Positions 10,247-39,183 are shown, counted from the first letter of the stretch. The stretch is 64,000 nt of DNA from Fibrobacteria bacterium (GCA_020633825.1 JACKCV010000003.1:241167-305166); one strand, 5' to 3'. Translations and numbers: made by a program. The notes: generated by a model not told the origin, from the letters alone.

Positions 10247-10298
10247 CTCGACTCCTGAGTGGGGCAGACGGGCGAAATTAGCAACTGAAAGAGGTAGT

Positions 10299-11465: not shown

Positions 11466-12055
11466 TTTTTGTCCTTGAGGAGTTTCTCGACGTACTTGGC
11501 CAGGACGTCGACCTCCACGTTCACGCGCCGACCGGCGCGCCAACGGGAAATGGTCGTGGCGGAAGCTGTGTGCGGGATGATGTTGACGGAGATGCGCGAG
11601 GCGGAAACGGATCCCAGCGTCAGGGAGATCCCGTCCAGGCAGATCGAACCGCGATCGATGCAGTACTTCGAAAGACCCGCGGGAAGTCGCAGGATCCATT
11701 CCGTGGAACCTTCGCGGCTCCGCGAGGAGACCACCGAAGCCACGCCGTCGACATGCCCCTGCACCCAATGCCCGCCCATGCGGGTGTGGGGCAGCATGGC
11801 CCGCTCGAGGTTCAGCAGGTCTCCGGGTTTGCGATCGCCCAGGGTGGTGACCTGGAGGGTCTCGGCGACGGCGACCACCTCGAACACGTCGCCTTGGATG
11901 GCCTCCACCGTCAGGCAGACGCCGTCGTGGGCGATCGAATCGCCGATCGCCAACCCGTCCCGGAAGAACGGGGCCTTGACCAGCAGGCGCCGGTTCCCGC
12001 GCTCGGGCTTGATCGCCTCCAGGAGGCCCTGGGTTTCGACGAGACCAGTGAACAT
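11462..12055 (-). CDS. ribE: Riboflavin synthase (alpha subunit)
   Basis: MFTGLVETQG...GDSIAHDGVCLTV...ICLDGISLTL duplicated lumazine-binding repeats. ATGA overlap with ribBA. Confidence 0.9.
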   Translation of the reverse strand: MFTGLVETQGLLEAIKPERGNRRLLVKAPFFRDGLAIGDSIAHDGVCLTVEAIQGDVFEVVAVAETLQVTTLGDRKPGDLLNLERAMLPHTRMGGHWVQGHVDGVASVVSSRSREGSTEWILRLPAGLSKYCIDRGSICLDGISLTLGSVSASRISVNIIPHTASATTISRWRAGRRVNVEVDVLAKYVEKLLKDKK

Positions 12056-12056
12056 G

Positions 12057-22187: not shown

Positions 22188-23024
22188 ATGCAGCCCCTCC
22201 ATCTTCTCGTCATCGATCCCCAGAACGACTTCTGCGACCTACCCGATCCCCTGCTCCCCATCCAGGGGGCGGGAGGCCGGATGCGCCCCGCCCTGCCCGT
22301 CCCCGGCGCCCACCAGGACATGGTCCGGCTGGCCCGCTGGATCCGCGGTCATGTGGACGCCCTCGACGCGGTGACCCTCACCCTCGACCAGCATCACCGC
22401 CTGGACATCGCCCATCCGCCGTTCTGGCGCCGGGCCGACGGCGGCCCCGTGCAACCCTTCACCCCCATCCTGGCCCGGCAGGTCGAGGCAGGGGAATTCC
22501 AGCCCGCCACCGGACTGGACCGCCAACGCGCCTTGACCTACCTCAAGGACCTCGAGAGCCAGGCGCGCACCACCCACATGGTGTGGCCCATCCATTGCCA
22601 GATCGGGACCTGGGGGGCCGCCGTGCACGCCGGATTGCAGGATGCCCTCGATCTCTGGGAGGACACGACGGGCCGGCAGGTCGCACACGTCGCGAAAGGC
22701 ACCCACCCTTGGACCGAACACTACAGCGCCATCCAGGCCGAAATCCCCGATCCCGACGAACCTGCCACGCTTCCCAACCAGGATCTGCTGCGAATGCTCG
22801 CGGACTCGCGAACCCTGGTGATCGCCGGCGAGGCCGGAAGCCACTGCGTGCGCGCCACGGTGGAGCACATCGTCGCCAGTTGGCCGCACGCTCCGGAACG
22901 GATCGTCCTGGCCGTCGACGCCATGAGCCCGGTTCCTGGATTCGAAACCGTCCAGGACCGATTCCTCGAAACCATGGCGAACCGTGGGGTGCGCACCCTC
23001 CCCCTCGACGCCATCCCCCACTGA
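22188..23024 (+). CDS. pncA: Isochorismatase-family cysteine hydrolase, putative nicotinamidase
   Basis: LVIDPQNDFCD and cysteine-hydrolase core (..AGEAGSHCVRAT..); position as first gene of an NrtR-linked NAD salvage operon. Longer than canonical PncA, so function is inferred. Confidence 0.6.
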   Translation: MQPLHLLVIDPQNDFCDLPDPLLPIQGAGGRMRPALPVPGAHQDMVRLARWIRGHVDALDAVTLTLDQHHRLDIAHPPFWRRADGGPVQPFTPILARQVEAGEFQPATGLDRQRALTYLKDLESQARTTHMVWPIHCQIGTWGAAVHAGLQDALDLWEDTTGRQVAHVAKGTHPWTEHYSAIQAEIPDPDEPATLPNQDLLRMLADSRTLVIAGEAGSHCVRATVEHIVASWPHAPERIVLAVDAMSPVPGFETVQDRFLETMANRGVRTLPLDAIPH

Positions 23025-23042: not shown

Positions 23043-24245
23043 ATGCCCATCGTGCGAAGCCTCCTCGAAACGGATCTCTACAAGTTCACCATGTGGCAGG
23101 CCTTCCTGCACAGCCACCCCGGAGCCGAGGCGGAATACGCGTTCGTGTGCCGCAGTCGCACCGAGTTCCCCCTCGCCGAATTGCGGGACGAGGTGCAGTC
23201 CGAACTCGAACACCTCTGCACCTTGCACTTCCTTCCGGAGGAACTGCAGTACCTCCGGGGACTCCGCTACCTCAAGGACGACTACGTCGATTTCCTCTCC
23301 GTCTTCCGGTTCCAGATGCGGTTCCTCGAAATCGGAACCGACGGGGAGAACCTGGTGGTGAAGGCGCGCGGCCCGATCGCCCACGTGATGGGCTTCGAGA
23401 TCTTCGTGCTCTACATCGTGAACGAACTGTATTTCCGACGGCTCGGCCGCACCGAGGAAGCCCTGGCCGAAGCCCGTGAACGCCTCGAGCGGAAGATCCG
23501 GCTGGTTTCGGAAGCGACCCTCCCCGGCGAGGCCGAAGGGGACTTTCCGTTCACGTTCTTCGAATTCGGCCTGCGTCGACGGTTTTCGGCCGCCTGGCAG
23601 GACGAGATGCTGCAACGCCTGGTCGCGGAGCTGCCCGGGAGACTGGGAGGAACCTCCAACGTCTACCTGGCGTACAAGCACGGCCTCAAGCCCATCGGCA
23701 CCATGGCCCACGAATTCCTCCAGGCCTACCAGGCCTTCGGCTTCCGCCTGCGCGACTTCCAGAAGGCGGCCCTCGAGGGATGGGTCCAGGAATTCCGTGG
23801 AGATCTGGGAATCGCCCTCACCGACGTGGTCGGGATGGACGCCTTCCTGGGCGATTTCGACCTCTATTTCGCCAAGCTCTTCGATGGATTGCGGCACGAT
23901 TCGGGAGATCCCGTGGAATGGGGAGAGAAGGCCATCGCCCACTACCGGAAACTCCACATCGATCCCCGGACCAAGCGCCTGGTCTTCTCGGACGGCCTGG
24001 ACATCCCGGGGGCCTTGCGCTTGCACGAACACTTCCGCACCCGCATCCCCACCGCCTTCGGCATCGGCACCAACCTTTCCAACGACACCATCCACCGACC
24101 GCTCAACATCGTGATGAAGATCCTGACCTGCAACGGACAACCCGTGGCGAAGCTCTCCGACAGCCCGGGCAAGACCCTGTGCCAGGACCAGGCGTTCCTG
24201 GCATATCTGCGCCAGGTGTTCGGCATCGCGACGGTGGCCCCATGA
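23043..24245 (+). CDS. pncB: Nicotinate phosphoribosyltransferase
   Basis: [15 protein letters not shown]-terminus and full-length similarity to the PncB pattern; 400 aa. Confidence 0.9.
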
Positions 24246-25945
24246 TCCGCCTCGCCCTGGCCCAGATCAATCCCACCATCGGCGACCTCGAGGGGAATCT
24301 CGCGCTCCTGCGCGAACAAGCCGCGAAGGCCGCCCTCGGCGGCGCGGACCTCGTCGTGTTTCCCGAGCTGGCCCTGTCGGGGTATTATCCCGGGGACCTC
24401 CTCGACGAACCCGCCTTCCTGGAACGGCTCGACCAGGCCCTGGGGCGTCTCCGGGAAGCCACGAAGGAGACCCCCGGACTGCTCTGGGTGGTCGGCGCCC
24501 CACGCCGTCGCTACGGTCCGGGCAAGAAGCTCGAGAACTCGTTGCTGGCCATCCGCGACGGGGAGATCCTCCAGGACTACGCCAAGCAATTGCTTCCCAC
24601 CTACGGGGTCTTCGACGAACGTCGCCATTTCGAACCCGGACAGGAGCAGGCGAAGGTCCTGCGGGTGAAGGACGTGCGGCTGGGATTCCTGGTCTGCGAG
24701 GACGCCTGGAACGATTCCGGAATGGAATACGCGACCAATCCCTGGATCCGCATGGCGGGAGCCGCCCCCGACCTCGTGGTGACGATCAACGCCAGCCCTT
24801 CGCACCTGGGCAAGCGGGAGGAGCGCCACGAACTGATCCGGCGGGCCAGCCATCGCCACCGGCTTCCCGTGGTGTACCTGAACCAGGTGGGAGGACACGA
24901 CCAGATCGTGTTCGACGGCGCCTCCTTCGCGGTGGATCCCGTCAAGGGAGTGGTCGACGAAGCCGCCTGGTTCGGCGAGGAGCTGCGTTTCCTCGACTTC
25001 GCTCCCGAGGGCTTCCGCACCCTGCAGGGTGCTCCCCTGGACACCCTCGACATCCCACCGGTCCCCGACGAGGAATTCCAGCGCCGGCAGATCGTCCTGG
25101 GGATCCGCGACTACGCCCGTCGCTGCGGATTCCGGAAGGCCGTCGTGGGGTCGTCGGGCGGCATCGACAGCGCGCTCGTGCTCGCCCTGGCCGTCGACGC
25201 GCTGGGGGCGGAGAACGTGGAGGCGATCACCATGCCGTCGCGCCTCTCGAGCGAGGGAAGCGTGACGGATTCCGTCGAACTGTGCCGCAACCTGGGCGTC
25301 CGCCTGCACACCTACCCCATCGCCGATCTGGTCCAGGCCGGACGGCTCCAGTTCGACGCGTCCTTCCAGGCCCCCTTGGCAGGACTCGCGGAGGAGAACA
25401 TCCAGGCGCGATTGCGCGGAACCATCCTGATGGCCTTCTCCAACCAGTTCGGCCATCTCCTGCTCACCACCGGCAACAAGAGCGAGATCTCGGTGGGCTA
25501 TTGCACGCTCTACGGCGACACCAACGGAGGCCTGGGACCCATCGGGGACCTCTACAAGACCGAGGTCTTCGCCCTCTCGAGGTACCTGAACCAACGCGCA
25601 GGACGGGAATTGGTTCCTTCGTCGATCCTGGAGAAGGAGCCGTCGGCGGAACTCGCCCCCGGACAGCGGGACGCCGACAGCCTCCCCCCGTATCCGGTGC
25701 TCGACACGATCCTCAAGGACCTCCTGGAAGGGGAACGCCTGCGTCCCGCCGAAGGCGACCAGACGCGCCGCGCCTTGCAGATGCTCCGTTTCCAACCCGG
25801 CGGCCGGGAGATCGTCGAACGGGTGAAGCATCTTCTGGCCAGGAGCGAATACAAGCGCCGCCAGGCTCCCCCCATCCTGAGGTTGCGCAGCCGCGCCTTC
25901 GGGCAAGGCCGCCAATTCCCCATCGCCGCCCACATCGTCCTCTGA
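24242..25945 (+). CDS. nadE: Glutamine-dependent NAD+ synthetase (CN-hydrolase + NAD synthase domains)
   Basis: N-terminal nitrilase-like domain ([17 protein letters not shown]...[17 protein letters not shown]) and C-terminal [11 protein letters not shown]-loop. ATGA overlap with pncB. Confidence 0.9.
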
Positions 25946-25961
25946 CCCCGGATCCTCCACC

Positions 25962-26960
25962 ATGCACCACGACACCGCCGTCCTGATCGGACGCTTCCAG
26001 CCCTTCCACGCCGGCCACGCCGGACTCCTCGAACGCGCCTTGGCCACGGGGCGATCCGTGGTGGTGGTCCTCGGATCGGCCTTCGCCGCCCCGTCGCCGC
26101 GCAATCCGTTTCCCGCCGAACTCCGGGAACGCATGATCCGGGCCACCCTTCGACCGGAAGACGACGCACGGGTGAGGTTCCACTACCAGCGCGACGTCTG
26201 GGACGGCCCCCGGTGGGCCTCCGAGGTCCGCCGGGCGGTGGAGTCCCTCGCCCCGGGGCGCACCGCCCTGGTGGGATTCCACAAGGATGCCTCGAGCGCC
26301 TACCTCGACACGTTCCCCGGCTGGGATCTCGTCGAGGCCGGACGCCAGGGACCTCTGGACGCGACGCCGCTGCGGGAGAAGATCCTGTCCGGGAATCCGT
26401 GGGAGGCGGTCGCCTCGGACCTTTCCCCCGACATCCCCGCCCCCGCCCTGGCGATCCTATCCGACTGGGCCGGCGGCCCGGATAGACAGGAATTGACATC
26501 CGATCTCGAGGCCATCCGGAGCTACCGCGCCAGGTGGGGGGAAGGCCCGTTCCTCACCGTCGACGCGGTGGTGGCCGCCCTGGACCACGTCCTGCTGGTC
26601 CGCCGCGGCGATCGCCCCGGGAAGGGTCTCCTCGCCCTCCCCGGCGGATTCCTGGACGCCTACGAGACCTTCGAGAACGGCGCCCGCCGCGAACTCCTGG
26701 AGGAGACCGGCCTGGACCTCGGCTCCCTGCATCCCACCAGGACGGAAACCTTCGCCCACCCCGGCCGCTCCAGCCGGGCGCGCATCGTCACCCAGGCATC
26801 CTTGTTCACCCCGACCTGGGAATTCCTCCCCCCGGTCCAGGGCCAGGACGACGCCGTCGACGCCCGGTGGGTCCCGATCCGGGACCTGCCGGGGCTGGAA
26901 GCGGGATTCTTCGGGGACCATTTCCACATCCTCGACCGGATGCTCGGCCTGCTTCCCTGA
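25962..26960 (+). CDS. nadM: Bifunctional NMN adenylyltransferase / Nudix ADP-ribose pyrophosphatase (NadM-type)
   Basis: IGRFQPFHAGH nucleotidyltransferase motif; C-terminal Nudix box GGFLDAYETFENGARRELLEETG. Confidence 0.8.
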   Translation: MHHDTAVLIGRFQPFHAGHAGLLERALATGRSVVVVLGSAFAAPSPRNPFPAELRERMIRATLRPEDDARVRFHYQRDVWDGPRWASEVRRAVESLAPGRTALVGFHKDASSAYLDTFPGWDLVEAGRQGPLDATPLREKILSGNPWEAVASDLSPDIPAPALAILSDWAGGPDRQELTSDLEAIRSYRARWGEGPFLTVDAVVAALDHVLLVRRGDRPGKGLLALPGGFLDAYETFENGARRELLEETGLDLGSLHPTRTETFAHPGRSSRARIVTQASLFTPTWEFLPPVQGQDDAVDARWVPIRDLPGLEAGFFGDHFHILDRMLGLLP

Positions 26961-26967
26961 GCTGGTG

Positions 26968-26995
26968 TGCGGGAGGATGGCGAAGCACCTCCCGC
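26968..26995. terminator. Possible bidirectional stem-loop between convergent nadM and phr
   Basis: GCGGGAGG-atggcgaagca-CCTCCCGC, an 8-bp GC stem; no U-tract. Confidence 0.25.
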
Positions 26996-26999
26996 CGCA

Positions 27000-28517
27000 T
27001 CAGCAGCGACCGAACCGTTCCAGGGCCACACCTCGCTCCCGGGCGTGGTCCACGACGGGGAGCGGCCAGGTTTCCCCCAGGACGACGCCGGCTTGCCGGA
27101 GGATTTCGGCAGGCGCCATCCACGGCGCGTGGATCCAGCGTGCGGGGAGTCTTCCCAGTTCGGGACACCAGCGTCGCGTCCAATCACCCTGGGCGTCCCA
27201 TCGTCGTCCCTGCTCCACGGGATTGAAGATCCGGAACCAGGGTTGGCCATCCGCTCCGGTGGAAGCCGCCCACTGCCATCCCCCCACGTTGGAGGCCAAT
27301 TCGATGTCCAGGAGATGTCGCGCGAACCATCGCTCCCCGCGTTTCCAATGGATGTGCAGGTCCTTGGTGAGGAAGGACGCGACCACCATGCGACACCGAT
27401 TGTGCATGCGCCCCGTGGTGGCGAGTTCCCGCATCGCCGCGTCGACGAAGGGGTACCCCGTGCGCCCCTCCTTCCAGGCCTCCCAACGAAGCGAGGCCTC
27501 GGGTTGATCCTCGGGATCGTCCCACGCCACCCGTTCCATCCGCTCCTGGAAGGCGTGCTCCACCGTGCCGGGCCATCGATGCAGGATGTCCTGGTAGAAG
27601 TCGCGCCAGGCGAGTTCGGAGATCCACTTGGCCGCTCCCGGGGATTCGCTCTCCCGGGCCGCGCGGACCAGGGAGCGAGCCGAGATCGTCCCGAAACGCA
27701 GATCGACCGACAAGCCGCTGGTTCCCTGCAAGGAAGGCTGGTCGCGATCCTCCGGGTAGGAATCGAGGCGACGGAGGAATTCCTGGAACCTCCCCCTGGC
27801 GGCATCCTCCCCGACCTGCGGAACCGGGGAATCCGGCCAGGCGAATCCCAGGGATTCCAGAAGTTCCCGAGGAGGCGGTACGGGCTTGGCGACTCGGGCC
27901 ATCTCGCCCCGGCGAGGCACCGAGCCCCGATCCCCCAGGCGGACTTCCGGGGAGCGTTCCAGCCAAAGCGTCCAAGTGCGGTGGTAGGGCGTGAACACCC
28001 GGAAGGACGAACCCGTCGAGGTCTTCAAGGTTCCCGCCGGAACCACCTCGACCTCCGACACCACGTGCAGGGACGAGCCGAAGGACTCGAGCGCCGTGCG
28101 AACCTCCCGATCCCGGGCGAGGCCGAACGGTTCGTGGTCCCCCCCGGCGAACACGGGAACCCTTCCCAGGGATCGCACCATCCGGGGGATCTCCATCCGA
28201 GCGGATCCGAAACCGACGAGCAGTCCCCCCGCGCGTTCCCGCAGGGAGGCCTCCAACGCCTGGACGCATCCGGCGATGAAGGCCACCCGCCGATCCTCCC
28301 GATCGGGCAGGGATCCCAGGATGTCGGCATCGAAGACGAACACCGCCAGGACCTTGCCTCCGACCGCGCGGGCATGCTCGAGGGCCGCGGCCAAGGCCGG
28401 ATTGTCGGCCAGGCGCAGGTCGCGACGAACCCACCAGATGGCCGCCACCTGGTCGGGGGAGTCCGTCAGAAGCTGTACCGGGTGGTCGGCGAATCGAAGG
28501 GAATTCCCAGCGCTCAT
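27000..28517 (-). CDS. phr: Deoxyribodipyrimidine photolyase / cryptochrome family protein
   Basis: 505 aa; WWVRRDLRLADNPAL N-terminus, FAD-binding C-terminal domain (...WISELAWRDFY...SNVGGWQW...). ATG at 28517. The remaining 420 aa of ORF 27000..29783 are spurious. Confidence 0.85.
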   Translation of the reverse strand: MSAGNSLRFADHPVQLLTDSPDQVAAIWWVRRDLRLADNPALAAALEHARAVGGKVLAVFVFDADILGSLPDREDRRVAFIAGCVQALEASLRERAGGLLVGFGSARMEIPRMVRSLGRVPVFAGGDHEPFGLARDREVRTALESFGSSLHVVSEVEVVPAGTLKTSTGSSFRVFTPYHRTWTLWLERSPEVRLGDRGSVPRRGEMARVAKPVPPPRELLESLGFAWPDSPVPQVGEDAARGRFQEFLRRLDSYPEDRDQPSLQGTSGLSVDLRFGTISARSLVRAARESESPGAAKWISELAWRDFYQDILHRWPGTVEHAFQERMERVAWDDPEDQPEASLRWEAWKEGRTGYPFVDAAMRELATTGRMHNRCRMVVASFLTKDLHIHWKRGERWFARHLLDIELASNVGGWQWAASTGADGQPWFRIFNPVEQGRRWDAQGDWTRRWCPELGRLPARWIHAPWMAPAEILRQAGVVLGETWPLPVVDHARERGVALERFGRC

Positions 28518-28705
28518 GAGGCGGCGTTTCCTTTGTGGTGACCGTTCAACCTGATCGGGAGGAAGCTCCAAATTCGTCCCGCGCAAGCCCAACCCCCGGG
28601 TGCAGGCGCATTCCCCTCCCCATCGGCGACCTCCCCGTTGGGGAGGGCGGAAACCCCTCGAGGAGACCGGAGTCGTCCCTCGGAGGACGGGGAGGTGGTT
28701 CGGGT

Positions 28706-30136
28706 TCAGGCTCCGCCGAGCAGGGCGCGGGGCCGGACCAGGCCTTCCGGGGAGAGGATCTCCTGCAGTTGCTCCTCGGTCAGCCAACCGCGCTCCAGGA
28801 CCAGCTCCCGGACCGGTCTGCGCGTGGCGTGGGCCTCGCGCGCGATCTCGGAGGCCCGGGCGTAGCCGATCCAGGGATTGAGGGCCGTGGCGACCCCGGC
28901 GGACTGGTCGACGAACTCCTGCATGCGCTCGCGTTCGGCGGTGATCCCCACCACGCAGCGATCGCGCAGGACCCGGCAACCCGTGGACAGGTAGGTGAGG
29001 CTCTGGAAGAGCGAGCGGGCCATGATGGGCTCGAAGGCGTTCAACTGGAGTTGACCGGATTCGGCGGCGAAGGAGACCGTCACGTCGTTGCCGATGACGA
29101 CGAAACTGATCTGGTTCACCACCTCGGGGATGATGGGATTCACCTTCCCGGGCATGATGGACGACCCCGCCGCCATGGGTGGCAGGCGGATCTCGCCCAG
29201 TCCCGCGCGCGGTCCGCTGGAGAGCAGTCGGAGATCGTTGCAGATCTTGGAGAGTTTCACGGCGACCCGTTTGAGGACGCCGGAAAGCTGCACGAAGGAG
29301 CCCGCATCCTGGGTGGCCTCGATGAGGTCGGTGGCCACGGCCAGATCGATTCCCGAGATATCCGACAGGCGGGCGCAGATGGTGGCCGCGTAGTCGGGAT
29401 GGGAGTTGATTCCGGTCCCGATGGCGGTGGCACCCATGTTGATCTCGCGCACCAGTCCCTGCGCCTCGCGGAGGCGCCTTCCATCCTCCTCCAGCATGGA
29501 GGCCCAGGCGTTGAATTCCTGGCCCAGGGTCATCGGAACCGCGTCCTGCAGCTGGGTGCGCCCCATCTTCAGGTGGTCGTGGAACTCCACCGCCTTCGCG
29601 GCGAAGGCGCCCCGCAAGGCGTCGAGCTCGACCAGAAGGCGATCGACCAGGAAGTGGAGGGCGATCTTCAACGCCGTCGGATAGGCGTCGTTCGTGCTCT
29701 GGCTGGCGTTCACATGGTCGAGAGGATGGAGATGCAGGTACTCGCCCTTGGAGTGCCCGAGGATCTCCAGGGCCCGGTTGCACACCACCTCGTTGGCGTT
29801 CATGTTCGTGCTGGTTCCGGCTCCGCCTTGGATCACGTCCACCACGAAGTGGTCGTGCAAGGCTCCTCCACGGATCTCGACGCAGGCCTGGGTGATGGCA
29901 TCGGCCTTCTCGTGGGAGATCACCCCCAACTCCCGATTGGCCTCGGCGGCCGCCTGCTTGACGCAGGCGAGGGCGTCGACAAGTTCCGGATAGAGGGAGA
30001 TGGGAACCCCGGAGATGGGGAAGTTCTCCAGGGCGCGCAAGGTGTGGATGCCCCAGTAGGCGTCCGAAGGGACCGCGCGTTCCCCCAGGAGGTCGTGTTC
30101 GATGCGGACGGGACGGCGAAGGAGAGAGTCGCTCAT
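28706..30136 (-). CDS. aspA: Aspartate ammonia-lyase (fumarate-lyase superfamily)
   Basis: GSSIMPGKVNPIIPEVVNQ signature; AspA-like N-terminus IEHDLLGERAVPSDAYWGIHTLRALENF. ATG at 30136. Confidence 0.8.
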   Translation of the reverse strand: MSDSLLRRPVRIEHDLLGERAVPSDAYWGIHTLRALENFPISGVPISLYPELVDALACVKQAAAEANRELGVISHEKADAITQACVEIRGGALHDHFVVDVIQGGAGTSTNMNANEVVCNRALEILGHSKGEYLHLHPLDHVNASQSTNDAYPTALKIALHFLVDRLLVELDALRGAFAAKAVEFHDHLKMGRTQLQDAVPMTLGQEFNAWASMLEEDGRRLREAQGLVREINMGATAIGTGINSHPDYAATICARLSDISGIDLAVATDLIEATQDAGSFVQLSGVLKRVAVKLSKICNDLRLLSSGPRAGLGEIRLPPMAAGSSIMPGKVNPIIPEVVNQISFVVIGNDVTVSFAAESGQLQLNAFEPIMARSLFQSLTYLSTGCRVLRDRCVVGITAERERMQEFVDQSAGVATALNPWIGYARASEIAREAHATRRPVRELVLERGWLTEEQLQEILSPEGLVRPRALLGGA

Positions 30137-30332
30137 GGGACCATTATCGCAAAATCGCCGCCCGCTCGGGAACCGGGCGCCCCCCCCTCCGGGAGACGGA
30201 CAATCATTGACCATCCCCTCCGGGATATTGTAGAGTTTCGGCTTCCGGAGGCACCGTGCCATTTCCCCCACTCGCGCACCATCCAATCCCCAGCATCCCC
30301 CCGAGGCGTGACGTCGGCCGGAGGATCCTTCC

Positions 30333-30920
30333 ATGGAACTGCTGACCGCGGCCTTCTCCCTGTCGGGTCTTCCCGCCACGGCTCTTCTTCTGCTGGTCCT
30401 CCTCTACTGGGCGGGCGTGATCGCCGGGTTGCAGGATTCCGACACCCTCGACGGGATCCTGGAATGGGACGGGCTGCTGGCCTGGCTGGGATGGCGTGGC
30501 GTACCCACCGCGGTCGGTCTTTCGGTGCATGCGCTGCTGTGGTGGACCTCCACCATGTTGGCCTGGCACTTTTTCCCCACCAAGGCCACGGGCACCGTCC
30601 TGTGGGTCTCCCTGGCCCTGTTCCCGGCGACCCTGATGGTCTCCCGGATCTTCGTTCGTCCCTTCGCTTGGCTGTTCCGGCAGTTGTCCGGAGAGGAGCG
30701 AGGGTTTTCCCGTCTGGTCACCGAGGCCGTCCTGGTGACCCCTCTCAAGGTGGGCACGATCGGTCAGGCGGAAATCGCCACCGACGGTTCCCCTCTCCTG
30801 GTGCATGTCGTGCTTGAACAAGGTTCCGACCTTCCCCGTGGCTCCCGCGTCGTCGTGGTGGCCCGGAGGCAGGACGGAGTCCACGTGGTCGTCCCCTCAT
30901 CCCTTCCGGAGATCCCCTGA
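30333..30920 (+). CDS. yqiJ: NfeD-like membrane protein (YqiJ/DUF1449-like), partner of flotillin
   Basis: 3-4 TM helices then a C-terminal OB-fold-like segment (VTPLKVGTIGQAEIATDGSPLLVHVV...RVVVVA). SD GGAGGA 8 nt upstream. 1-nt TGATG overlap with the flotillin gene. Confidence 0.6.
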   Translation: MELLTAAFSLSGLPATALLLLVLLYWAGVIAGLQDSDTLDGILEWDGLLAWLGWRGVPTAVGLSVHALLWWTSTMLAWHFFPTKATGTVLWVSLALFPATLMVSRIFVRPFAWLFRQLSGEERGFSRLVTEAVLVTPLKVGTIGQAEIATDGSPLLVHVVLEQGSDLPRGSRVVVVARRQDGVHVVVPSSLPEIP

Positions 30921-33082
30921 TGCCCGAACTCGGCTTCGTGAACCAACTCGTGGTTGCCCTCGTCCTCCTGGGACTGGTCTTCTTCACCGGCCTGGCGATC
31001 CTGATCGTCCGCTGCTACCGCAAGCCCGAGCAGGGCACCGCGATGGTGCGCAACGGGTTCGGCGGATCCAAGGTCTCCTTCTCGGGAGTCCTGGTGCTTC
31101 CCGTGCTTCACCGCATCGAGGAGATGGACATCTCCGTCAAGCGCGTCGAGATCCACCGGGCCGGGAAGGAAGGCCTCATCTGCAAGGACAACCTCCGCGC
31201 CGACATCAAGGTCGCGTTCTTCGTGCGGGTCAACAAGACTCCCGAGGACGTCCTCAAGGTGGCCCAGTCCCTGGGTTGCCAGCGCGGCTCGAGTTCGGAC
31301 GCCCTGGTGGAACTGTTCGACGCCAAGTTTTCCGAGGCCCTCAAGACCGTGGGCAAGCAGTTCAACTTCGTCGACCTCTACAACTCCCGGGAATCGTTCA
31401 AGCACGAGATCCTCCAGATCATCGGCACCGACCTCAACGGCTACGTCCTGGACGACGCCGCCATCGACTACCTCGAGCAGACCTCCCTCGACCTGCTCAA
31501 CCCCCAGAACATCCTCGACTCCGAGGGCATCAAGAAGATCACCGAGCTGACCGCGGCCCAACTCGTGCTGGCCAACCACATCCAGCGGGACAAGGAGAAG
31601 ACAATCACCCGTCAGAACGTGGAGGCCCGCGAGGCGGTGCTCGAACTGGAGAAGCAGCTCGCCGAGAAGGAAGCGCGCCAGAAGCGCGAAGTGGAGGTGA
31701 TCCAGGTCCGCGAACAGGCCGAAACCGCCCGCACCCGCGAGGAGGAGAGGTTGCGCGTGGAATCCGTGACCATCCGCACCAACGAGGAGATCGCGGTCGC
31801 CAACGAGAACATGGAGCGACAGATCCTGGTCGCCCGCAAGAACCGCGAACGGACCGAGGCGGTGGAGACCGAACGGGTGGAGAAGGATCGCCTGCTCGAG
31901 GCCAACGAACGGGAGAGGGTGGTTTCCCTGGCGCAGATCGAGAAGGAGAAGGCGCTGGAGGAGGAGAAGCGCAAGATCCAGGACGCCATCCGCCAACGCG
32001 TGGTGGTGGAACGGGCCGTTGTCGAGGAGGAGGAGAAGATCAAGGACACGCGGGTGCTGGCCGAGTCGGAACGCGTGCGCAAGGCCGCGGTCATCGACGC
32101 CGAGAAGGTCGCGCAGGTCGTGGCCGTGAAGGAAGTGCAATCGGCCAAGGCCTCGCGGGACGCGGCCACCATGGTGTCGGAGCAGATGCTCATCGAAGCC
32201 GAAGCGAGCCTTGCGGCCTCGGAGAAGCAGGCCGAGGCCAAGCGACGCCTCGCCGAGGGACAGAAAGCGGAACTTTCGGTGGCCGGACTCTCGGAAGCCC
32301 TGGTGATCGAGGCGCGCAGCCAGGCACTCGAGAAGCAAGGGGTCGCCGAGGCCGTGGTCCTGGAACGCAAGGCCGTCGCCGAAGCCAAGGGGCTCGTGGA
32401 GAAGTCCACCGCGCTCAAGGCCCAGGGGGAAGCGGAAGCCGAGGTCCTGCAGCGTAAGGCCGTCGCCGAGGCCAAGGGCCAGATGGAACTTTCCAGCGCC
32501 ACGCGGGCCCAGGGCGACGCCGAAGCCGAGGTCATGCTGAAGAAGGCCTCCGCCGAGGCCAAGGGCATCGCGCAGAAGGCGGAATCGATGAAGTCCTTCG
32601 ATCTCGCGACCCGCGACCACGAGGAATTCCGCCTTCGCCTGGAGAAGGAAAAGGCCGTCGACCTCGCCGGGATGGAGATCCAGAAGGACATCGCCCGCTC
32701 CCAGGCCGAAGTGCTCCGCGAAGGGCTCAAGTCGGCCCGCATCGAGATCATCGGCGGGGAGACGGTGTTCTTCGACAAGCTGCTCGGGGCCATGACCCAG
32801 GGCAAGGCGATCGATCGGATGGTCGCGGGGAGCGCCGTGCTCTCCGACGTCAAGGACACCTTCTTCCAGAAGGACGGCAAGCCGTTCAAGGAGAAGCTGG
32901 CGCAATTCGTCGACCAGTTCGGAATCGGCTCGGAGGACCTTCGGAACCTGTCGGTTTCGGGTCTCCTGCTGAAGATGATCGCCAAGACCGACAACCCGGG
33001 GCTGCAGAACACGCTGTCGGCCCTGCTGCAGCAGGCGGAATCCGCCAAGATCGCCGAAAAGCCCGTCCAGAAGTTCCTCTGA
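30920..33082 (+). CDS. yqiK: Flotillin-family SPFH/band-7 protein (YqiK/FloT-like)
   Basis: N-terminal TM anchor, SPFH domain, then a long Glu/Ala/Lys-rich coiled-coil with AEAKG repeats; 720 aa. Confidence 0.85.
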   Translation: MPELGFVNQLVVALVLLGLVFFTGLAILIVRCYRKPEQGTAMVRNGFGGSKVSFSGVLVLPVLHRIEEMDISVKRVEIHRAGKEGLICKDNLRADIKVAFFVRVNKTPEDVLKVAQSLGCQRGSSSDALVELFDAKFSEALKTVGKQFNFVDLYNSRESFKHEILQIIGTDLNGYVLDDAAIDYLEQTSLDLLNPQNILDSEGIKKITELTAAQLVLANHIQRDKEKTITRQNVEAREAVLELEKQLAEKEARQKREVEVIQVREQAETARTREEERLRVESVTIRTNEEIAVANENMERQILVARKNRERTEAVETERVEKDRLLEANERERVVSLAQIEKEKALEEEKRKIQDAIRQRVVVERAVVEEEEKIKDTRVLAESERVRKAAVIDAEKVAQVVAVKEVQSAKASRDAATMVSEQMLIEAEASLAASEKQAEAKRRLAEGQKAELSVAGLSEALVIEARSQALEKQGVAEAVVLERKAVAEAKGLVEKSTALKAQGEAEAEVLQRKAVAEAKGQMELSSATRAQGDAEAEVMLKKASAEAKGIAQKAESMKSFDLATRDHEEFRLRLEKEKAVDLAGMEIQKDIARSQAEVLREGLKSARIEIIGGETVFFDKLLGAMTQGKAIDRMVAGSAVLSDVKDTFFQKDGKPFKEKLAQFVDQFGIGSEDLRNLSVSGLLLKMIAKTDNPGLQNTLSALLQQAESAKIAEKPVQKFL

Positions 33083-33086
33083 GACG

Positions 33087-36000
33087 ATGGACACCTCGAC
33101 GGAGACGGTTCCCGCCCAGGGGCCGTCAGGCGGGAACTGGGATGTTCTGAAGGTTCGTCTGGGACGCCAGAGGACCGAACTCGAGGAATGGCTCGCCGGA
33201 TTCGACCGACGGCGCAAGAAGGTTTTCGGGGCCGCCGAGTGGAAGCTCGACCGGACCCTCCACGTGGCCACGGAAAGCCGATGCGTGCCCCGGGATCTCA
33301 CCCAGGTGGGCGAGACCCTCCTGCTGGGGTACAACGTCCAGTTCGGGCTCAAGACCGAGACGGTCCTCTCCGACGTCTTCTCCCTCTACGCCCGGGACGA
33401 GGAAGGCGGATACCGCGAACAACCCCTGGACCTCCTCTCCGAGCCCCGCTTCCACGAGGATTTCCGCAACCTCTACCGGTACTACCGCCAATCGCAATTC
33501 GCGCGATTCGTCCGGCAGGGGAATTTCCTGTTCATGGTGTTCCGCGTCGGATCGCTCCTCGACGATCTCAAGGCCTTCAAATGGCGCATCGGCCGGGACG
33601 GGTTGGGCTACGAAGGAGACCGCGCGGTCTCGGAGATCCAGATCCCTCCCCGGCATGGATTCGAATGGACCCGAACCCGCCGAGAACACCATCGCGAAGG
33701 CAAGCATCCGCACATTTCCATCGAGGACAAGGTCTTCGTCGAGACCATCGGCGGCGATCTGACGATCAAGGTCGAGAACAACACGGAATCGGGCCGAGGC
33801 ATCCTCAGCGAACCGGTGGAGCACCGGGACCAGACCCTCGACGACGCCGAGATCCACTATGCGGTCCTGGGCGACATCGTCACGTTGCGCATCCGCCCCT
33901 TCCAGGAAAAGGATCCGCGCCACTTCCTGTATTTCTGCAAGACCAAGCAGGCGTTCCGGGTCGACTCCCTCGCCCATTCCAGCGCCCTCCTGCCCCAGCA
34001 GCACGGCCTTCTCCTCCCCGACGGATGGGCCCTGCAATCGGGCGATCTGAGACGTTTCCAGACCGTGCGTCCCGACCTGTTCTTCGACGGACGCATGGAA
34101 TCGGGCACGGGCGAGGACCACCTGTACTCCTTCCACGACCCCGCCACGGGGGAATACACCCTCCTCTCCTACCGGCTCACCGAGCAGAGGACGGAAACCC
34201 CGATCTCCTGCCACGGCTGGTGCCTCGTCCCGTCGGGCGAATTGCTGGTCTTCCGGGCCCAGAGCGAGCCCCAGTCGAGCCACGCCCTCCAACTTTGGAA
34301 GACCCCCTTCGGAGGCCAGACGGAAAAGCCCCTGGAGGCGGACCCTTGGCTGGAGAAGATCGGGAACCAGGACCTGGTGCGGTTCCTGGCCCAAGGGCAT
34401 CGCCTGCGCAACCTGATGGGCCGCGACCCGGACTTCGCCGGTCTGTTCGGCGATCTGACGCGCGAGGCCCGCAATCTCGCCGACGCCCATTTCTGGATCA
34501 AGGACGAGGAGGCCGGCGACATCGACCGGATCCTCCGGGAGATCGGGGAGACCGCCGAAGCGGCCATCGGCGAGTACGAGAAGGTCGAGCGCAGCCGGCT
34601 TGCCGCCACCTCGACCCGACAGGAATTGGAATCACGGCTCGCCCCGGACCTCGCGGAAGCCCCGCTGTTCCCGGGACTTGCCGATTGCCTGGAGAGCCTC
34701 CACCGCCTCCGCGAAGGTCGCGGACAGACCCTGGAAGCGGCGGAGATGCCCTTCGCCGATCGCGAGGCCTGCCAACTCCTGGAAGAGCGAATCTCCGCGG
34801 CGCAGGATCGGGTGGGAGCCGCCTGCACCGGCTTGCTGCTCTCCGAGAACGCCCTCGAACCCTGGCGCCAGGGATCCGTCGCGGTTTCCGCGGCCCTCCC
34901 CGGACTGCGCATGGCCCGCGAGGCGGCCGAGCTCGACGCCCGGCTCGACCTGCAGGCTCGCCAGCTCGAACTCCTCCTGGAAACCATCGGAAGCCTCAAG
35001 GAGGTCGACGCCGTCCAATCGACGGCGATTTCCGATCGCGTCTCCCAACTGCTCGCGGAACAGAACCAGGTGCGCAGCGCCCTGCGCCAGCGTCGCACCG
35101 AGTTGGGAAGACTCGAGGGACAGGCCGAATTCGCAGCCCAGGGAAGGCTGGTCGCGCAGGCCCTCGCGAGCGCGCTCGACCTCGCCGCGACCCCAGAGGA
35201 TTGCCAATCCTCGCTGGTGCGTCTGCTGGCCCGTCTGGAGGAACTCGAGGCCCGTTTCGGGGAGGTCCCGGAATTCCTGGAGAAGCTCGCCGATCTTCGC
35301 GAGGAGATGGTCGCCTCGCTCGACGCCCGACGCGTGCAACTCCTGGAGACGCGCGGCCGTCGGTGCGCCCAGGTGACCGAATCCGGGGAACGCATCCTCA
35401 AGGGGCTCGCCCAGCGCGCCGAATCCCTCGCCGACGCGGCCGCGGTCCGCTCCTTCTTCGCCTCCGACCCGCTGGTCGACAAGGTGCGCACCCTGGCCGG
35501 CCAGCTTCGTTCCCTCGGGGATGCCGCCGCCGCCGAGGAGCTCTCCGGGAAACTCCAGACCTTGCAGGAGGATTCCCTTCGCAAGGTCCGGGACCGTGCC
35601 GAACTCCTGGTGGAGGGCGGACAGGGACTCAAGCTCGGGCGCCACGTGTTCGCGATCCAGAAGACCCGCCCCGAACTGGCGGTCTTCCCCGGCCAGGATG
35701 GCCTGGAACTCCACATCTCCGGTACCGGTTTCCGTCAGCGGATCCAGGACTCCGAAGTGGACGCCCTCCGGGACGTTTGGGATCTGGAAGGAACGGGAGA
35801 ATCCCCCCGGGCCCAACGAGGGGAAGTGCTCGCCTGGCGTCTCCTCGACCTGGCCGAACGCGAGATCCCCGGAGGCTGGAAGGCCCTGTCCCGCGAGGAC
35901 GATTCCGCCCTTTCGGCGCGGCTGCGCGTCCTCATGGAGTCCTCCGCCGTGGAGGGCTGGCAGAGGGGCGTCCACGACGAGGACGCTCTGCAGATCCTGC

Positions 36001-37961
36001 GCGCCTCCCTCGATGCCTGCTCCACCTTGGGGGCCATGCGCCATCCCGCCCCGGCCCGGGCCGCCGCGCTGGAATTCTGGAAGGCGGTCGTCGACCCGGC
36101 CTGGAAGGAACGCATCAGGACCCTCTTCGGAGCGACCGCGGATCTCCAGGGTTCCTTCCCCGTGCCTCCCCGGAAGATCGCCTCGCGCATGGCGGCACTC
36201 CTCGCCTGCGAGGGCGCCATCGGCCATTTCCTGAAATCCACCGATCACGACCCCGGCGTCTCGGCGACGGAAATCGCCGACTTCCTGGGAGACGCATTGG
36301 AATCCGCGGTGTTCCCTTGCCTGTCGGCGCGATCCCGGGAGACCTACGAAACCTGGCTGGGGCGCATGCAGGCGGCCGACGCCTTGGAGGGATTCCGCAG
36401 GAGCCTCCGCGCCCTGGATGGGCAGACGGGCCAGCAACGCCGATTGGCCCTGGACTGGTTGCGAGCCTCCTTCCCCGAAGGAGATCCGACCATCGACGAG
36501 GTGGCCGCCTACCTGTGCGTCGGGGAACCCGACGACATCCGCTGGCTCCCCGCCGAATCCCCCCGCGACATCGCGTTGCGCTCCCCCCATCCGCTCTCGC
36601 CTTCGGGAACCTTCCGTTTCCTCCACGGCGATTTCCACCGCCGCCTGCGCCAGCACCACATGGAGGTGGCCCCACGCGTCCAGGCCTACCGCCGCCGACG
36701 GCACCTGCTCCTGGAAAAGGCCCGGGAAGACCTCCCTCTGGACGGATTCCGTCCCAAGGTGCTCGCCTCGTTCGTGCGCAACCGCCTGGCCGACGAGGTG
36801 TACCTGCCGCTCGTCGGCGACAACCTCGCCAAGCAGATCGGAGCCATGGGCGGAGACAAGCGATCCGACCGCATGGGGCTCCTTCTGCTGATCTCGCCCC
36901 CGGGATACGGGAAGACCACCTTGGTGGAATACCTGTGCGACGCGCTGGGGATGCTGTTCGTCAAGATCAACGGCCCGTCCCTCGGGCGATCCACCACGGG
37001 GATCGATCCCGCCCAGGCGCGCGACGGCGCTGCTCGACAGGAATTGGAACGCCTGTCCCTGGCGCTGGAGATGGGCGACAACGTCCTGATCCTGATCGAC
37101 GACATCCAGCATTGCCATCCCGAATTCCTCCAGAAATTCATCTCGCTGTGCGACGGCCAGAGACGCATGGACGGCACCTACAAGGGCAAGGCTCGCACCT
37201 GGGACCTCCGCGGCAGGCGGGTGGCGGTGGTGATGGCGGGAAATCCCTACACCGAAAGCGGCGAAGCCTTCCGCGTTCCCGACATGCTGGCCAACCGCGC
37301 CGACACGTTCAATCTGGGCGATCTGGCGGGAACCCACGCGGGGGCCTTCCGGGACAGCTACCTGGAGAATTGCCTGATGGTCAATTCCCTGCTCGCCCGC
37401 CTGTTCGGCCGCCACCGCAAGGATTTCGCCCTCTTCCTGCGCAACCTGGCCTCCCCCGGCGAGACGGAGGAAGCCTACGAAGGGAACCATTCCGCCACGG
37501 ATCTCGAGGAAGCCGAACGGGTGGTCCGCCACCTCATGCGCATCCGCGACGCGGTGCTGGCCGTGAATCGCGCCTACATCGCCTCCGCCTCGGCTCCCGA
37601 GGAGTACCGCACCGAGCCGCCGTTCAAGCTCCAGGGGTCGTACCGCAACATGAACAAACTCGCCGAGAAGGTCTCCTCGATCATGACCGACGAGGAAGTG
37701 ACCACCCTGCTCCTCGACCACTACCAGTCCGAAGCGCAATCCCTGGCCCGCGAATCCGAGATCAGCCTCCTGCAGGTTCGTCGACTGCTCGGATCCCCTC
37801 TACCCGGCGACGAGGCCCGCTGGGGGGAGATCATGGAAACATGGAGTCGGCGCAAAGGTGGGAAAGGCGGAGCCGGAGCCCAGGCCCTGGCCGAGATCTC
37901 CGGCTTGCGGAAGGCCGTGGAGAAGGTGGGTTCGATGCTGGTCCGTCCCCCTTCCGTTTGA
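33087..37961 (+). CDS. Giant (1624 aa) AAA+ ATPase: uncharacterised N-terminal ~1260 aa plus MoxR/AAA_5-like ATPase core near the C-terminus
   Basis: Walker A LLLISPPGYGKTTL (aa ~1270), Walker B VLILIDDIQH, sensor region AGNPYTES...RADTF. Starts 4 nt after the flotillin stop. Resembles large bacterial proteins annotated as DNA-repair ATPase (DUF3686-like); this is from memory, not searched. Confidence 0.75.
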   Translation: MDTSTETVPAQGPSGGNWDVLKVRLGRQRTELEEWLAGFDRRRKKVFGAAEWKLDRTLHVATESRCVPRDLTQVGETLLLGYNVQFGLKTETVLSDVFSLYARDEEGGYREQPLDLLSEPRFHEDFRNLYRYYRQSQFARFVRQGNFLFMVFRVGSLLDDLKAFKWRIGRDGLGYEGDRAVSEIQIPPRHGFEWTRTRREHHREGKHPHISIEDKVFVETIGGDLTIKVENNTESGRGILSEPVEHRDQTLDDAEIHYAVLGDIVTLRIRPFQEKDPRHFLYFCKTKQAFRVDSLAHSSALLPQQHGLLLPDGWALQSGDLRRFQTVRPDLFFDGRMESGTGEDHLYSFHDPATGEYTLLSYRLTEQRTETPISCHGWCLVPSGELLVFRAQSEPQSSHALQLWKTPFGGQTEKPLEADPWLEKIGNQDLVRFLAQGHRLRNLMGRDPDFAGLFGDLTREARNLADAHFWIKDEEAGDIDRILREIGETAEAAIGEYEKVERSRLAATSTRQELESRLAPDLAEAPLFPGLADCLESLHRLREGRGQTLEAAEMPFADREACQLLEERISAAQDRVGAACTGLLLSENALEPWRQGSVAVSAALPGLRMAREAAELDARLDLQARQLELLLETIGSLKEVDAVQSTAISDRVSQLLAEQNQVRSALRQRRTELGRLEGQAEFAAQGRLVAQALASALDLAATPEDCQSSLVRLLARLEELEARFGEVPEFLEKLADLREEMVASLDARRVQLLETRGRRCAQVTESGERILKGLAQRAESLADAAAVRSFFASDPLVDKVRTLAGQLRSLGDAAAAEELSGKLQTLQEDSLRKVRDRAELLVEGGQGLKLGRHVFAIQKTRPELAVFPGQDGLELHISGTGFRQRIQDSEVDALRDVWDLEGTGESPRAQRGEVLAWRLLDLAEREIPGGWKALSREDDSALSARLRVLMESSAVEGWQRGVHDEDALQILRASLDACSTLGAMRHPAPARAAALEFWKAVVDPAWKERIRTLFGATADLQGSFPVPPRKIASRMAALLACEGAIGHFLKSTDHDPGVSATEIADFLGDALESAVFPCLSARSRETYETWLGRMQAADALEGFRRSLRALDGQTGQQRRLALDWLRASFPEGDPTIDEVAAYLCVGEPDDIRWLPAESPRDIALRSPHPLSPSGTFRFLHGDFHRRLRQHHMEVAPRVQAYRRRRHLLLEKAREDLPLDGFRPKVLASFVRNRLADEVYLPLVGDNLAKQIGAMGGDKRSDRMGLLLLISPPGYGKTTLVEYLCDALGMLFVKINGPSLGRSTTGIDPAQARDGAARQELERLSLALEMGDNVLILIDDIQHCHPEFLQKFISLCDGQRRMDGTYKGKARTWDLRGRRVAVVMAGNPYTESGEAFRVPDMLANRADTFNLGDLAGTHAGAFRDSYLENCLMVNSLLARLFGRHRKDFALFLRNLASPGETEEAYEGNHSATDLEEAERVVRHLMRIRDAVLAVNRAYIASASAPEEYRTEPPFKLQGSYRNMNKLAEKVSSIMTDEEVTTLLLDHYQSEAQSLARESEISLLQVRRLLGSPLPGDEARWGEIMETWSRRKGGKGGAGAQALAEISGLRKAVEKVGSMLVRPPSV

Positions 37962-38004
37962 GGAATCCCACCTCCCCGGGCTGCTCGGCCGGTGAGGTGG
38001 TGCC

Positions 38005-38526
38005 CTACCAGGGTCCGAAGCTGCGTCGCAGGGAATCGGATTGGATCACGGACGCCTGGAGGATCCTCGGATCGACCCGAGGAGAATCCGTGTTCTTCCA
38101 GACCACGTGCCCGTCGCGCCCGTAGAATACGGCCTTCCGGCGCTCCGCACCGGGGATGTCCCCCGTCTCCAGGTACTTCACCACGGCCCCTTCCCGGAAG
38201 TAGTAGGTGAAGACGCTCGTCCAGGTCTCGTGACCGACGAGGATCCGGATCCGGGCGAGCGTGGTCCCCCGGAAACAGCTTTCGAGGCGAGGCGGGACGC
38301 CTTCGGAGAGCCCCGACTCCTCGGTGGTCGTGCAACGCAATTCCTCCCCTCGGGCCAGGCTGTCCACTCCGGCGGCGAATTCGTTGATCGCCGCCAGGGA
38401 ATCTCCCTGGGACGCATCCACCGGCTGCGAAACGACCGGGCAGGCGCACGTCAGGGCCGAAGCGAAGAGTAGCGGTTTCGGGATGGACCTTCCCCCTCCG
38501 GACCGGAGGGTGCCGAGGGACGTCAC
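38005..38526 (-). CDS. Hypothetical protein with a hydrophobic N-terminal segment
   Basis: C-terminal 170 aa of ORF 38005..38934 have normal composition (..AAINEFAAGVDSLARGEEL...VKYLETGD...). Start uncertain: GTG 38526, or a non-canonical codon after the GGAGGGGGAAGG SD. Confidence 0.35.
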   Translation of the reverse strand: MTSLGTLRSGGGRSIPKPLLFASALTCACPVVSQPVDASQGDSLAAINEFAAGVDSLARGEELRCTTTEESGLSEGVPPRLESCFRGTTLARIRILVGHETWTSVFTYYFREGAVVKYLETGDIPGAERRKAVFYGRDGHVVWKNTDSPRVDPRILQASVIQSDSLRRSFGPW

Positions 38527-38533
38527 GTTCCGG

Positions 38534-39088
38534 TCAGCGTGCCGCCAAGGAACGCATCCTGAGGATTTCGGCGCCGCGGAAATTCGCACCCGCGTACAGA
38601 CTGTCCCCCATGCGCAACGAATCGACCATGCTGGCATCCTTGCTCGCCAGGACCAACCCGGCGGAGTCCAGGGCCACCAGCTGGAACTCCGCGCTCTCCG
38701 GCAAGGGGCGTTTTCCGACTCCGGAGATCGCGAGATTGATGCGGAACTCGCCCTTGAAGAAATCCGGCAGACCGATGGAGGCCCCGCCAAAGGAGACGGG
38801 GAGCGAATCTTCGCTGGCACCCACGGGAAGCGGGAGACGTTTCCCCTTGCCTCCGAGGAGCACCAGCATGCGCGCCTTGGCCGAATCGACGATGGCGACC
38901 TCCTGCTTCCCCAACTCCACGGCCTCCGCCGCATCGGTGGCGGAGGCTTTCTTCGCGGACGTCTCGGCCAGCTCCTTCTCGGCTTGGACCCCGATCGAGA
39001 GCAACTGCTCCACAGGCCCCTTCGGGGCTTCCTTTTCGCATCCGGTCAGCACGACGAGAGCTCCGAGAACGACGATGATTCTGCGCAT
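38534..39088 (-). CDS. Putative lipoprotein, unknown function
   Basis: MRRIIVVLGALVVLTGC lipobox. Ala/Lys/Glu-rich mature part, not Arg/Pro-biased like the overlapping 371-aa ORF. Confidence 0.5.
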   Translation of the reverse strand: MRRIIVVLGALVVLTGCEKEAPKGPVEQLLSIGVQAEKELAETSAKKASATDAAEAVELGKQEVAIVDSAKARMLVLLGGKGKRLPLPVGASEDSLPVSFGGASIGLPDFFKGEFRINLAISGVGKRPLPESAEFQLVALDSAGLVLASKDASMVDSLRMGDSLYAGANFRGAEILRMRSLAAR

Positions 39089-39183
39089 GGGGATTCTCCA
39101 GGTCGCCACGGCACGGGTGGCGGACACGATGGGTCAAATCTGCATTCCCCTGGCGCGGTCCACAGCCGGGTGTTGCACCGCGA

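Follow-up and report, generated by a model that had tools for sequence, protein, structure and literature searches.

A conserved YqiJ-like, flotillin and AAA+ ATPase operon in a Fibrobacteria genome and its possible role in membrane remodelling

A 64-kb stretch of a Fibrobacteria metagenome-assembled genome (the whole of which is called the window below; GC content approximately 66%) carries three consecutive open reading frames (ORFs), encoding a YqiJ/NfeD-like membrane protein (ORF1), a YqiK-type flotillin (ORF2) and a large AAA+ ATPase (ORF3). The operon is strongly conserved and has been known from comparative genomics since 2024. Taking the evidence together, we lean towards reading the trio as a membrane-stress or membrane-remodelling module, the "abbreviated" form of a PspA-associated YqiJ-flotillin-AAA+ operon, in which the ATPase would remodel the flotillin scaffold. 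The evidence comprises the order and linkage of the genes, the domain composition of their products, the recurrence of PspA beside the trio and the comparison with systems already described.

Operon structure and conservation of the three genes

ORF1 (30333-30920, + strand; 195 aa) and ORF2 (30920-33082, +; 720 aa) overlap by 1 nt (TGATG at 30918-30922), and a 4-nt gap separates ORF2 from ORF3 (33087-37961, +; 1624 aa; TGA-gacg-ATG at 33080-33089). The three co-directional genes with this overlap and this gap were thus found exactly as an earlier note on this DNA, made from the sequence alone, had described them. Codon-position GC content was examined because spurious ORFs are abundant in GC-rich genomes. 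The third-position values (GC3) of ORF1, ORF2 and ORF3 were 0.81, 0.90 and 0.84, respectively, with second-position values (GC2) of 0.35-0.48, which matches the other real genes of the window; the three ORFs carry the coding signature of a 66% GC genome. Genes on the opposite strand flank the trio at both sides (a fumarase/aspartase-type lyase at 28706-30379 on the left and a lipoprotein gene at 38534-39127 on the right), and the trio is therefore a self-contained unit. With these flanks and the tight junctions, co-transcription of the three genes is likely.

To analyse the conservation of the arrangement, GTDB was scanned with a single genome for each species, and at least 587 relatives were confirmed among the first 600 pattern matches listed. 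A set of 80 loci was kept from Planctomycetota, Verrucomicrobiota, Bacteroidota, Desulfobacterota, Firmicutes, Kiritimatiellota and Omnitrophota, with up to 10 kb fetched on each side, and neighbours were identified by tblastn and by unsupervised clustering of all neighbouring ORFs. Of the 66 loci with at least 2.5 kb of upstream DNA, 63 had the flotillin gene directly 5' of the ATPase gene and in the same orientation. A YqiJ-like gene preceded the flotillin gene in 57 of 64 loci, and the gap between these two genes had a median of 18.5 nt (58 loci). The same gene order was seen in the annotated records of a Streptomyces plasmid, the Pseudomonas fluorescens plasmid pQBR103 and a Hymenobacter plasmid. 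The linkage of the YqiJ-like, flotillin and ATPase genes is tight and is kept across at least seven phyla.

These counts bear on the simplest alternative, namely that an ordinary yqiJK pair and an unrelated ATPase gene stand side by side by chance. Three homolog loci without a flotillin gene could be cited for it. With flotillins that are 39-61% identical, 63 of 66 loci, drawn from at least seven phyla, share one gene order and strand, and this conservation refutes chance juxtaposition, to which we give practically no credence. The earlier note had named the absence of any such adjacency elsewhere as what would overturn its proposal; the SPFH/YqiJ pair was instead nearly always found next to homologs of the ATPase.

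Some variation was observed around the conserved order. Flotillin and ATPase genes without a YqiJ-like gene were present in four loci (L051 and L064-L066). In some loci the gap between the flotillin and ATPase genes extends to 0.7-1.7 kb. A conserved fourth gene in these gaps was considered and rejected, as the ORFs found there are mutually unrelated (lipoproteins, IS200-like transposases and toxin-antitoxin-like genes). The spacer ORFs are those of L010 (8477-9947), L048 (8297-9965), L051 (7955-9443), L059 (6833-8240), L022 (6671-7420), L039 (5455-6371) and L014 (9385-9989). Those of L022 and L039 include IS200/Y1-transposase-like genes, and those of L014 and L051 look, by eye, like toxin-antitoxin or nucleotidyltransferase genes. 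The spacer seems to tolerate insertions while the operon order is retained. In locus L036, tblastn detected a full-length ATPase (10001-14833), but clustering placed no long single ORF of this locus in the family, and the 10 kb upstream contained neither a flotillin nor a YqiJ gene; this may be a frameshifted, degraded or orphan copy.

Two candidate signals were located at the ends of the window operon. The sole sigma-70-like site in 29900-38600 is a promoter candidate approximately 100 nt 5' of ORF1 (TTGACC-18 nt-TAGAGT; 30207-30236, +), which is a consensus match only and not functional evidence. An inverted repeat (ccacctc...gaggtgg; 37966-38000, +), noticed by eye and having no T-run, lies a few bases past the stop codon of the ATPase gene. 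It may form a hairpin at the end of the transcript; the terminator scan made no call on it.

Domain composition of the three proteins

None of the Pfam, NCBIfam or PADLOC models matched the ORF1 and ORF2 proteins of the window, even at E=10, and ORF2 had no sequence match in the PDB. For this reason, family alignments built from the 80 related loci (63 flotillins and 60 ORF1-like proteins) were used, together with direct comparison with Escherichia coli YqiJ and YqiK.

By profile comparison, ORF1 is a short NfeD-like protein of the YqiJ/YuaF type, which is polytopic in the membrane and carries a soluble domain at its C terminus. The family profile was aligned by hhalign with E. coli YqiJ over nearly the full length (186 columns; probability 96.3%; E-value 1.7e-9), YqiJ_N (PF21001) was matched by 17 of the 60 family members, and hydropathy analysis placed hydrophobic segments at aa 3-36 and aa 85-108. 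Profile, Pfam matches and hydropathy agree on a polytopic YqiJ-type N-terminal membrane domain. Matches to NfeD itself (PF01957) were found in two of the 60 members, and the match of the family profile to the soluble domain of Bacillus subtilis YuaF (2k14) was weak (E-value 0.034). Short NfeD proteins are partners of SPFH proteins, and ORF1 is encoded immediately upstream of an SPFH gene.

ORF2 is a YqiK-type flotillin consisting of an N-terminal transmembrane (TM) segment, an SPFH domain, a coiled coil of approximately 345 aa and a C-terminal flotillin region. When compared by BLASTP, it shared 30% identity with E. coli YqiK over 448 aa (E-value 6e-46), through the TM, SPFH and coiled-coil regions. 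The hhalign comparison of the family profile with YqiK reached a probability of 100%, the alignment extending to aa 434; the match to E. coli QmcA was weak. Band_7 (PF01145) was matched by seven of the 63 family members (best E-value 7e-14), and relatives of ORF2 are named "flotillin family protein / YqiK" by NCBI and JGI. The TM segment lies at aa 1-34 by hydropathy, and aa 216-560 (345 aa) consist of 61% E, K, R, A and Q. ORF2 thus combines SPFH homology with the N-terminal anchor and the long, coiled-coil/EA-rich region of flotillins.

The first two genes have the same order as E. coli yqiJ-yqiK and B. subtilis yuaF-floT (NfeD2-FloT), a small membrane protein being followed by a flotillin. 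They differ from these pairs in that ORF2 is approximately 170 aa longer than YqiK (720 versus 553 aa) and that the window proteins lie under the Pfam thresholds. The earlier note held that the canonical yqiJK locus has no giant ATPase, which is correct for E. coli K-12: no ATPase gene follows yqiJK, and sibD/ibsD are next.

The Pfam search that had been proposed for the 1624-aa protein matched DUF3686 (aa 31-469; E-value 1.7e-148), DUF7902 (aa 588-672) and AAA/AAA_5 (aa 1266-1389). With the BLASTP and hhalign results above, it bears out the identities first given to the three genes (YqiJ/NfeD-like protein, YqiK-type flotillin and AAA+ ATPase). No TM segment was detected in ORF3 by hydropathy, and more than 3200 homologs were found at E-values lower than 1e-10. 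AlphaFold was run on aa 1-1200 and on aa 1160-1624, with an alignment of 42 sequences in each case, and both models had a mean predicted local distance difference test score (pLDDT) of 84. From these models, Pfam and hydropathy, ORF3 is a cytosolic protein composed of a beta-propeller, a coiled-coil region and an AAA+ module.

In the model of aa 1-1200, an N-terminal helix is followed by a predicted beta-propeller (DUF3686; aa 53-405; 33243-34301, +) of about seven four-stranded blades, as seen from the DSSP strand pattern. The best Foldseek matches of aa 53-405 were the WD40-type propellers of DCAF1 (E-value 8e-6) and EED, the clathrin terminal domain and IFT-A. Proteins with this propeller form a compact family, with 593 representatives at 50% identity and E ≤ 0.001 out of 1.84 billion, and nearly all of its full-length members are 1600-1900 aa long. 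The propeller is followed by long alpha-helical/coiled-coil arrays (aa 420-838; 34344-35600, +), which include DUF7902, and then by a small beta domain (aa 847-885) and a helical domain (aa 911-1144), which together occupy 35625-36518 (+). No Pfam match was found in aa 847-1144, and neither of these two domains was assigned to a known family.

The AAA+ core and lid (aa 1233-1501; 36783-37589, +) have a predicted structure nearest to MoxR and dynein folds and contain the pre-sensor-1 beta-hairpin that characterises the MoxR-type (AAA_5 / helix-2-insert) clade; the nearest folds of all are the MoxR chaperones CbbQ and NorQ. The best Pfam match of this region is PF00004 and the PDB sequence matches are p97 and Rix7. 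These matches do not outweigh the fold because they are confined to the Walker A region. On the predicted structure, the module is MoxR/dynein-like and not a classical AAA module of the Vps4/p97/FtsH clade, in which there is no pre-sensor-1 hairpin and the pore loop is aromatic. The nucleotide-binding residues are intact: Walker A residues G1273, K1276 and T1277, sensor-1 N1386 and R1404 are invariant in the family, as is a DD pair in Walker B (D1338-D1339) in place of the canonical DE.

The ATPase family is widely annotated as a DNA-repair protein, and one could suppose that a repair ATPase is merely co-located with membrane genes. The supposition draws on names ("ATPase involved in DNA repair" for DUF3686 in Pfam and "DNA repair ATPase" at NCBI), on a marginal RuvB_N match at Walker A only (E-value 0.003, below the cutoff) and on the LexA-family annotation of a divergent regulator in Bacteroidota. 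Against this, Pfam detected no DNA-binding, nuclease or helicase domain in ORF3, its fold matches are propellers and MoxR/dynein AAA+ proteins, its operon partners are membrane proteins, and the literature search found no paper backing a repair role. We regard a function in DNA repair as highly improbable. The name, which probably goes back to a resemblance of the coiled coils to proteins of the SMC/SbcC type, looks like a propagated misannotation, with domains, fold matches and gene context all failing to support it.

The fold also brings in an explanation in which the ATPase acts on clients and not on the scaffold. MoxR-type AAA+ hexamers remodel specific partner complexes, and SPFH proteins build large membrane cages, as in HflK/C around the AAA+ protease FtsH, in QmcA (26 chains in PDB entry 8z5g) and in flotillin-1/2. 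By analogy with HflK/C-FtsH, or with MoxR chaperones maturing a specific complex, the flotillin/YqiJ cage would corral damaged or unassembled membrane proteins, and the ATPase would extract or remodel these clients. Partnerships of SPFH and AAA+ proteins such as HflK/C-FtsH are established, the nearest folds are MoxR chaperones, and propellers, like coiled coils, typically serve as substrate or adaptor modules. The operon, however, contains neither a protease domain nor a VWA adaptor, and no conserved candidate client gene was found nearby, PspA being the only recurrent neighbour. Past Walker A, no aromatic pore-loop motif was recognised by eye, which from the sequence would argue against threading. 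A function resembling that of a chaperone, in assembling complexes of the membrane, has also been proposed (Ravi et al.; PMC11237479). We consider such client-directed quality control unlikely, while giving it more weight than the other alternatives discussed here.

The differences from these relatives are considerable. Coupling of an SPFH scaffold to an AAA+ protein at the membrane, as in HflK/C-FtsH and the prohibitin-m-AAA protease, is general knowledge and serves as a working analogy; FtsH is a membrane-anchored classical AAA+ protease, whereas ORF3 is a cytosolic protein of MoxR/dynein-like predicted fold that lacks a protease domain. MoxR proteins (CbbQ, NorQ and RavA) are approximately 300 aa long and have a VWA/MIDAS partner, whereas the AAA+ module of ORF3 is the C-terminal quarter of 1624 aa. 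Compared with MoxR and dynein/midasin AAA modules, ORF3 adds the propeller and the coiled coil, besides having the Walker B DD.

Linkage to PspA, genomic context and competing explanations

PspA/IM30 was the sole recurrent extra neighbour of the trio, being present in 20 of 64 loci. Among 140 flanking ORFs pooled from 73 loci, PspA_IM30 was matched 22 times. In about 20 Bacteroidota loci the order is CesT/Tir-like, PspA, YqiJ-like, flotillin and ATPase, and this operon is divergently paired with an HTH-XRE regulator (L033 4313-5065, L077 4917-5633 and L084 1568-2353, all on the - strand), which has a weak S24-peptidase match and is called "LexA family" by NCBI. These are hints that an autocleaving, CI/LexA-like repressor controls the Bacteroidota operon. 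An independent linkage to PspA was found on pQBR103, a 425-kb megaplasmid of P. fluorescens SBW25 (L081; record 85112-97641). There the trio is fused downstream of a yjf-type cluster of PspA, rhomboid, DUF2491, DUF350, DUF1190 and glutathionylspermidine-synthase genes. A gene of the MvaT/MvaU family is located just past the trio on this plasmid.

The earlier note had ranked the locus as a candidate for an undescribed system. This does not hold, as a YqiJ/YuaF - band-7/flotillin - beta-propeller/coiled-coil/AAA+ operon was described by comparative genomics by Ravi et al. (mSystems 2024; bioRxiv 2020; PMC11237479), both with a CesT/Tir-PspA dyad and as an "abbreviated" three-gene form. The module was tied to the PspA membrane-stress system, and the same functional prediction was reached from gene neighbourhoods (PMC11237479). 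The window encodes the same three proteins in the same order, with the propeller, coiled-coil and AAA+ protein downstream of the flotillin, and in the Bacteroidota loci analysed here the full form was recovered, together with its divergent cHTH+protease regulator. The supplementary table of Ravi et al. gives the architecture string for Dokdonia donghaensis (example ANH61663.1; PMC11237479). We take the Dokdonia ATPase for a member of this family because other Flavobacteriia (the same class) have an identical architecture, and not on the basis of its sequence. No AAA+ clade was named by Ravi et al., and by predicted structure the module is MoxR/dynein-like. The window copy differs from the full form in having no CesT/Tir-PspA dyad and no regulator; because PspA and CesT are absent, it is the abbreviated form.

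For the reading as a membrane-stress or membrane-remodelling module speak the recurrent linkage to PspA and the composition of the ATPase, which pairs protein-interaction modules (propeller and coiled coils) with a MoxR/dynein-like AAA+ module. Several observations weigh against it. By tblastn, no homolog of PspA, CesT or the regulator was found in the 64-kb window. In three loci (L036, L047 and L061), the DNA fetched around the ATPase gene (up to 10 kb per side) contained no flotillin gene, so that the ATPase can occur with no partner next to it. With DD in Walker B, hydrolysis could be slow or regulatory. A VWA/MIDAS partner, though usual for MoxR-type ATPases, was not found in the three proteins or their recurrent neighbours. 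Finally, the literature search found no experimental work on any member of the trio. Membrane remodelling, as first suggested in the earlier note, is nevertheless consistent with the evidence as a whole, and it is in that sense that we infer it.

That note had also pointed to anti-phage systems and to a check for defence islands. An anti-phage or abortive-infection system of this kind would use the SPFH scaffold and the NTPase to sense infection at the membrane and would respond by membrane remodelling or cell death. In favour of this, the spread over phyla is patchy and copies are found on megaplasmids: the ATPase occurs in 13 records of the plasmid collection, several of which are megaplasmids or chromosomes. 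Further points for defence are the toxin-antitoxin-like and transposase insertions in some flotillin-ATPase spacers, the CI/LexA-like HTH of the Bacteroidota regulator with its weak S24 match, and a few homolog loci near defence genes (SspH, mad2/mad8 and WGR/HEAT-ARM type XIII). The three window proteins, however, had no match in PADLOC (PADLOC-DB 2.0), and no effector domain (nuclease, TIR or pore-former) was detected. The ATPase was present in 0 of 50,697 phage records. Each PADLOC family among the 140 flanking ORFs from 73 loci was a singleton, PspA alone being recurrent. The neighbours in the window are genes for nicotinamide adenine dinucleotide (NAD) synthesis, the lyase, the lipoprotein, a carbohydrate-binding module (CBM) protein and an ammonium transporter, and the context of the trio is housekeeping. 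A link of flotillin operons to defence was not found by literature search. The suggestion of an anti-phage function was therefore not borne out by these results, and we judge it improbable. A defence island as a general feature was rejected, with no recurrent defence genes near the window trio or its homologs.

Among the neighbouring genes, a compact cluster for NAD biosynthesis and salvage (23043-26960, +) consists of a nicotinate phosphoribosyltransferase (NAPRTase), a glutamine-dependent NAD synthase and a cytidylyltransferase-NUDIX fusion. Taken at its longest, the NAD synthase ORF (23780-25945) overlaps the gene for NAPRTase and shows no Pfam domain before aa 157; the true start is for these reasons probably farther downstream. 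Two other ORFs of the window, 26967-28541 (+; 524 aa) and 22188-23024 (+; 278 aa), had no Pfam match; the 524-aa ORF, which failed the GC3 filter for coding sequence, may be spurious.

Possible mechanism and implications

For the favoured membrane-remodelling module, a mechanism may be outlined, in which we infer that the proteins dock physically and, likewise, the oligomeric state, the substrate and the trigger by stress. The YqiJ/NfeD-like protein and the YqiK-type flotillin would assemble a membrane-anchored SPFH scaffold (cage or microdomain) on the inner membrane, facing the cytoplasm. The cytosolic ATPase, probably a hexamer as in MoxR-type AAA+ proteins, would dock on this scaffold through its beta-propeller and long helical arms, and ATP hydrolysis would assemble, remodel or dismantle the flotillin lattice. 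Envelope damage would be the trigger. When a PspA/ESCRT-III homolog is encoded alongside or elsewhere, the ATPase may act on that polymer too. PspA/Vipp1 being bacterial ESCRT-III, the arrangement shares its logic with ESCRT-III/Vps4, that is, a membrane-bound polymer with a dedicated cytosolic AAA+ remodeller. The likeness is further suggested by PspA as the recurrent operon partner of the ATPase.

A bolder form of the proposal, which we offer only tentatively, is that the trio is a self-sufficient, ATP-powered machine, whose MoxR/dynein-like AAA+ motor, mounted on a propeller and a long coiled-coil stalk, mechanically opens, closes or recycles the flotillin cage and, where present, PspA/ESCRT-III polymers. 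If true, the machine would give bacterial flotillin its first dedicated remodelling ATPase and would correspond in function, within bacteria, to Vps4 acting on ESCRT-III. A variant in which the same machine serves as an abortive-infection or envelope-breach sensor is less likely.

The window copy itself adds only a Fibrobacteria example of an arrangement already reported by comparative genomics. What is new here is the structure-based assignment of the ATPase as MoxR/dynein-like, the linkage counts (63/66 and 57/64), the negative defence context and the recognition that the name "DNA repair ATPase", carried by thousands of database entries, is unsupported by the evidence presented here. The ATPase is nearly always paired with a YqiK-type flotillin and often with PspA. 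The operon may answer two questions, namely how bacteria build, open and recycle their flotillin assemblies and whether bacterial PspA/ESCRT-III polymers have a dedicated, Vps4-like disassembly ATPase. Carriers include culturable and genetically tractable bacteria (Proteus, Vibrio, Pseudomonas with pQBR103, Streptomyces, Deinococcus, Hymenobacter and Flavobacteriia), and the hypothesis is thus directly testable.

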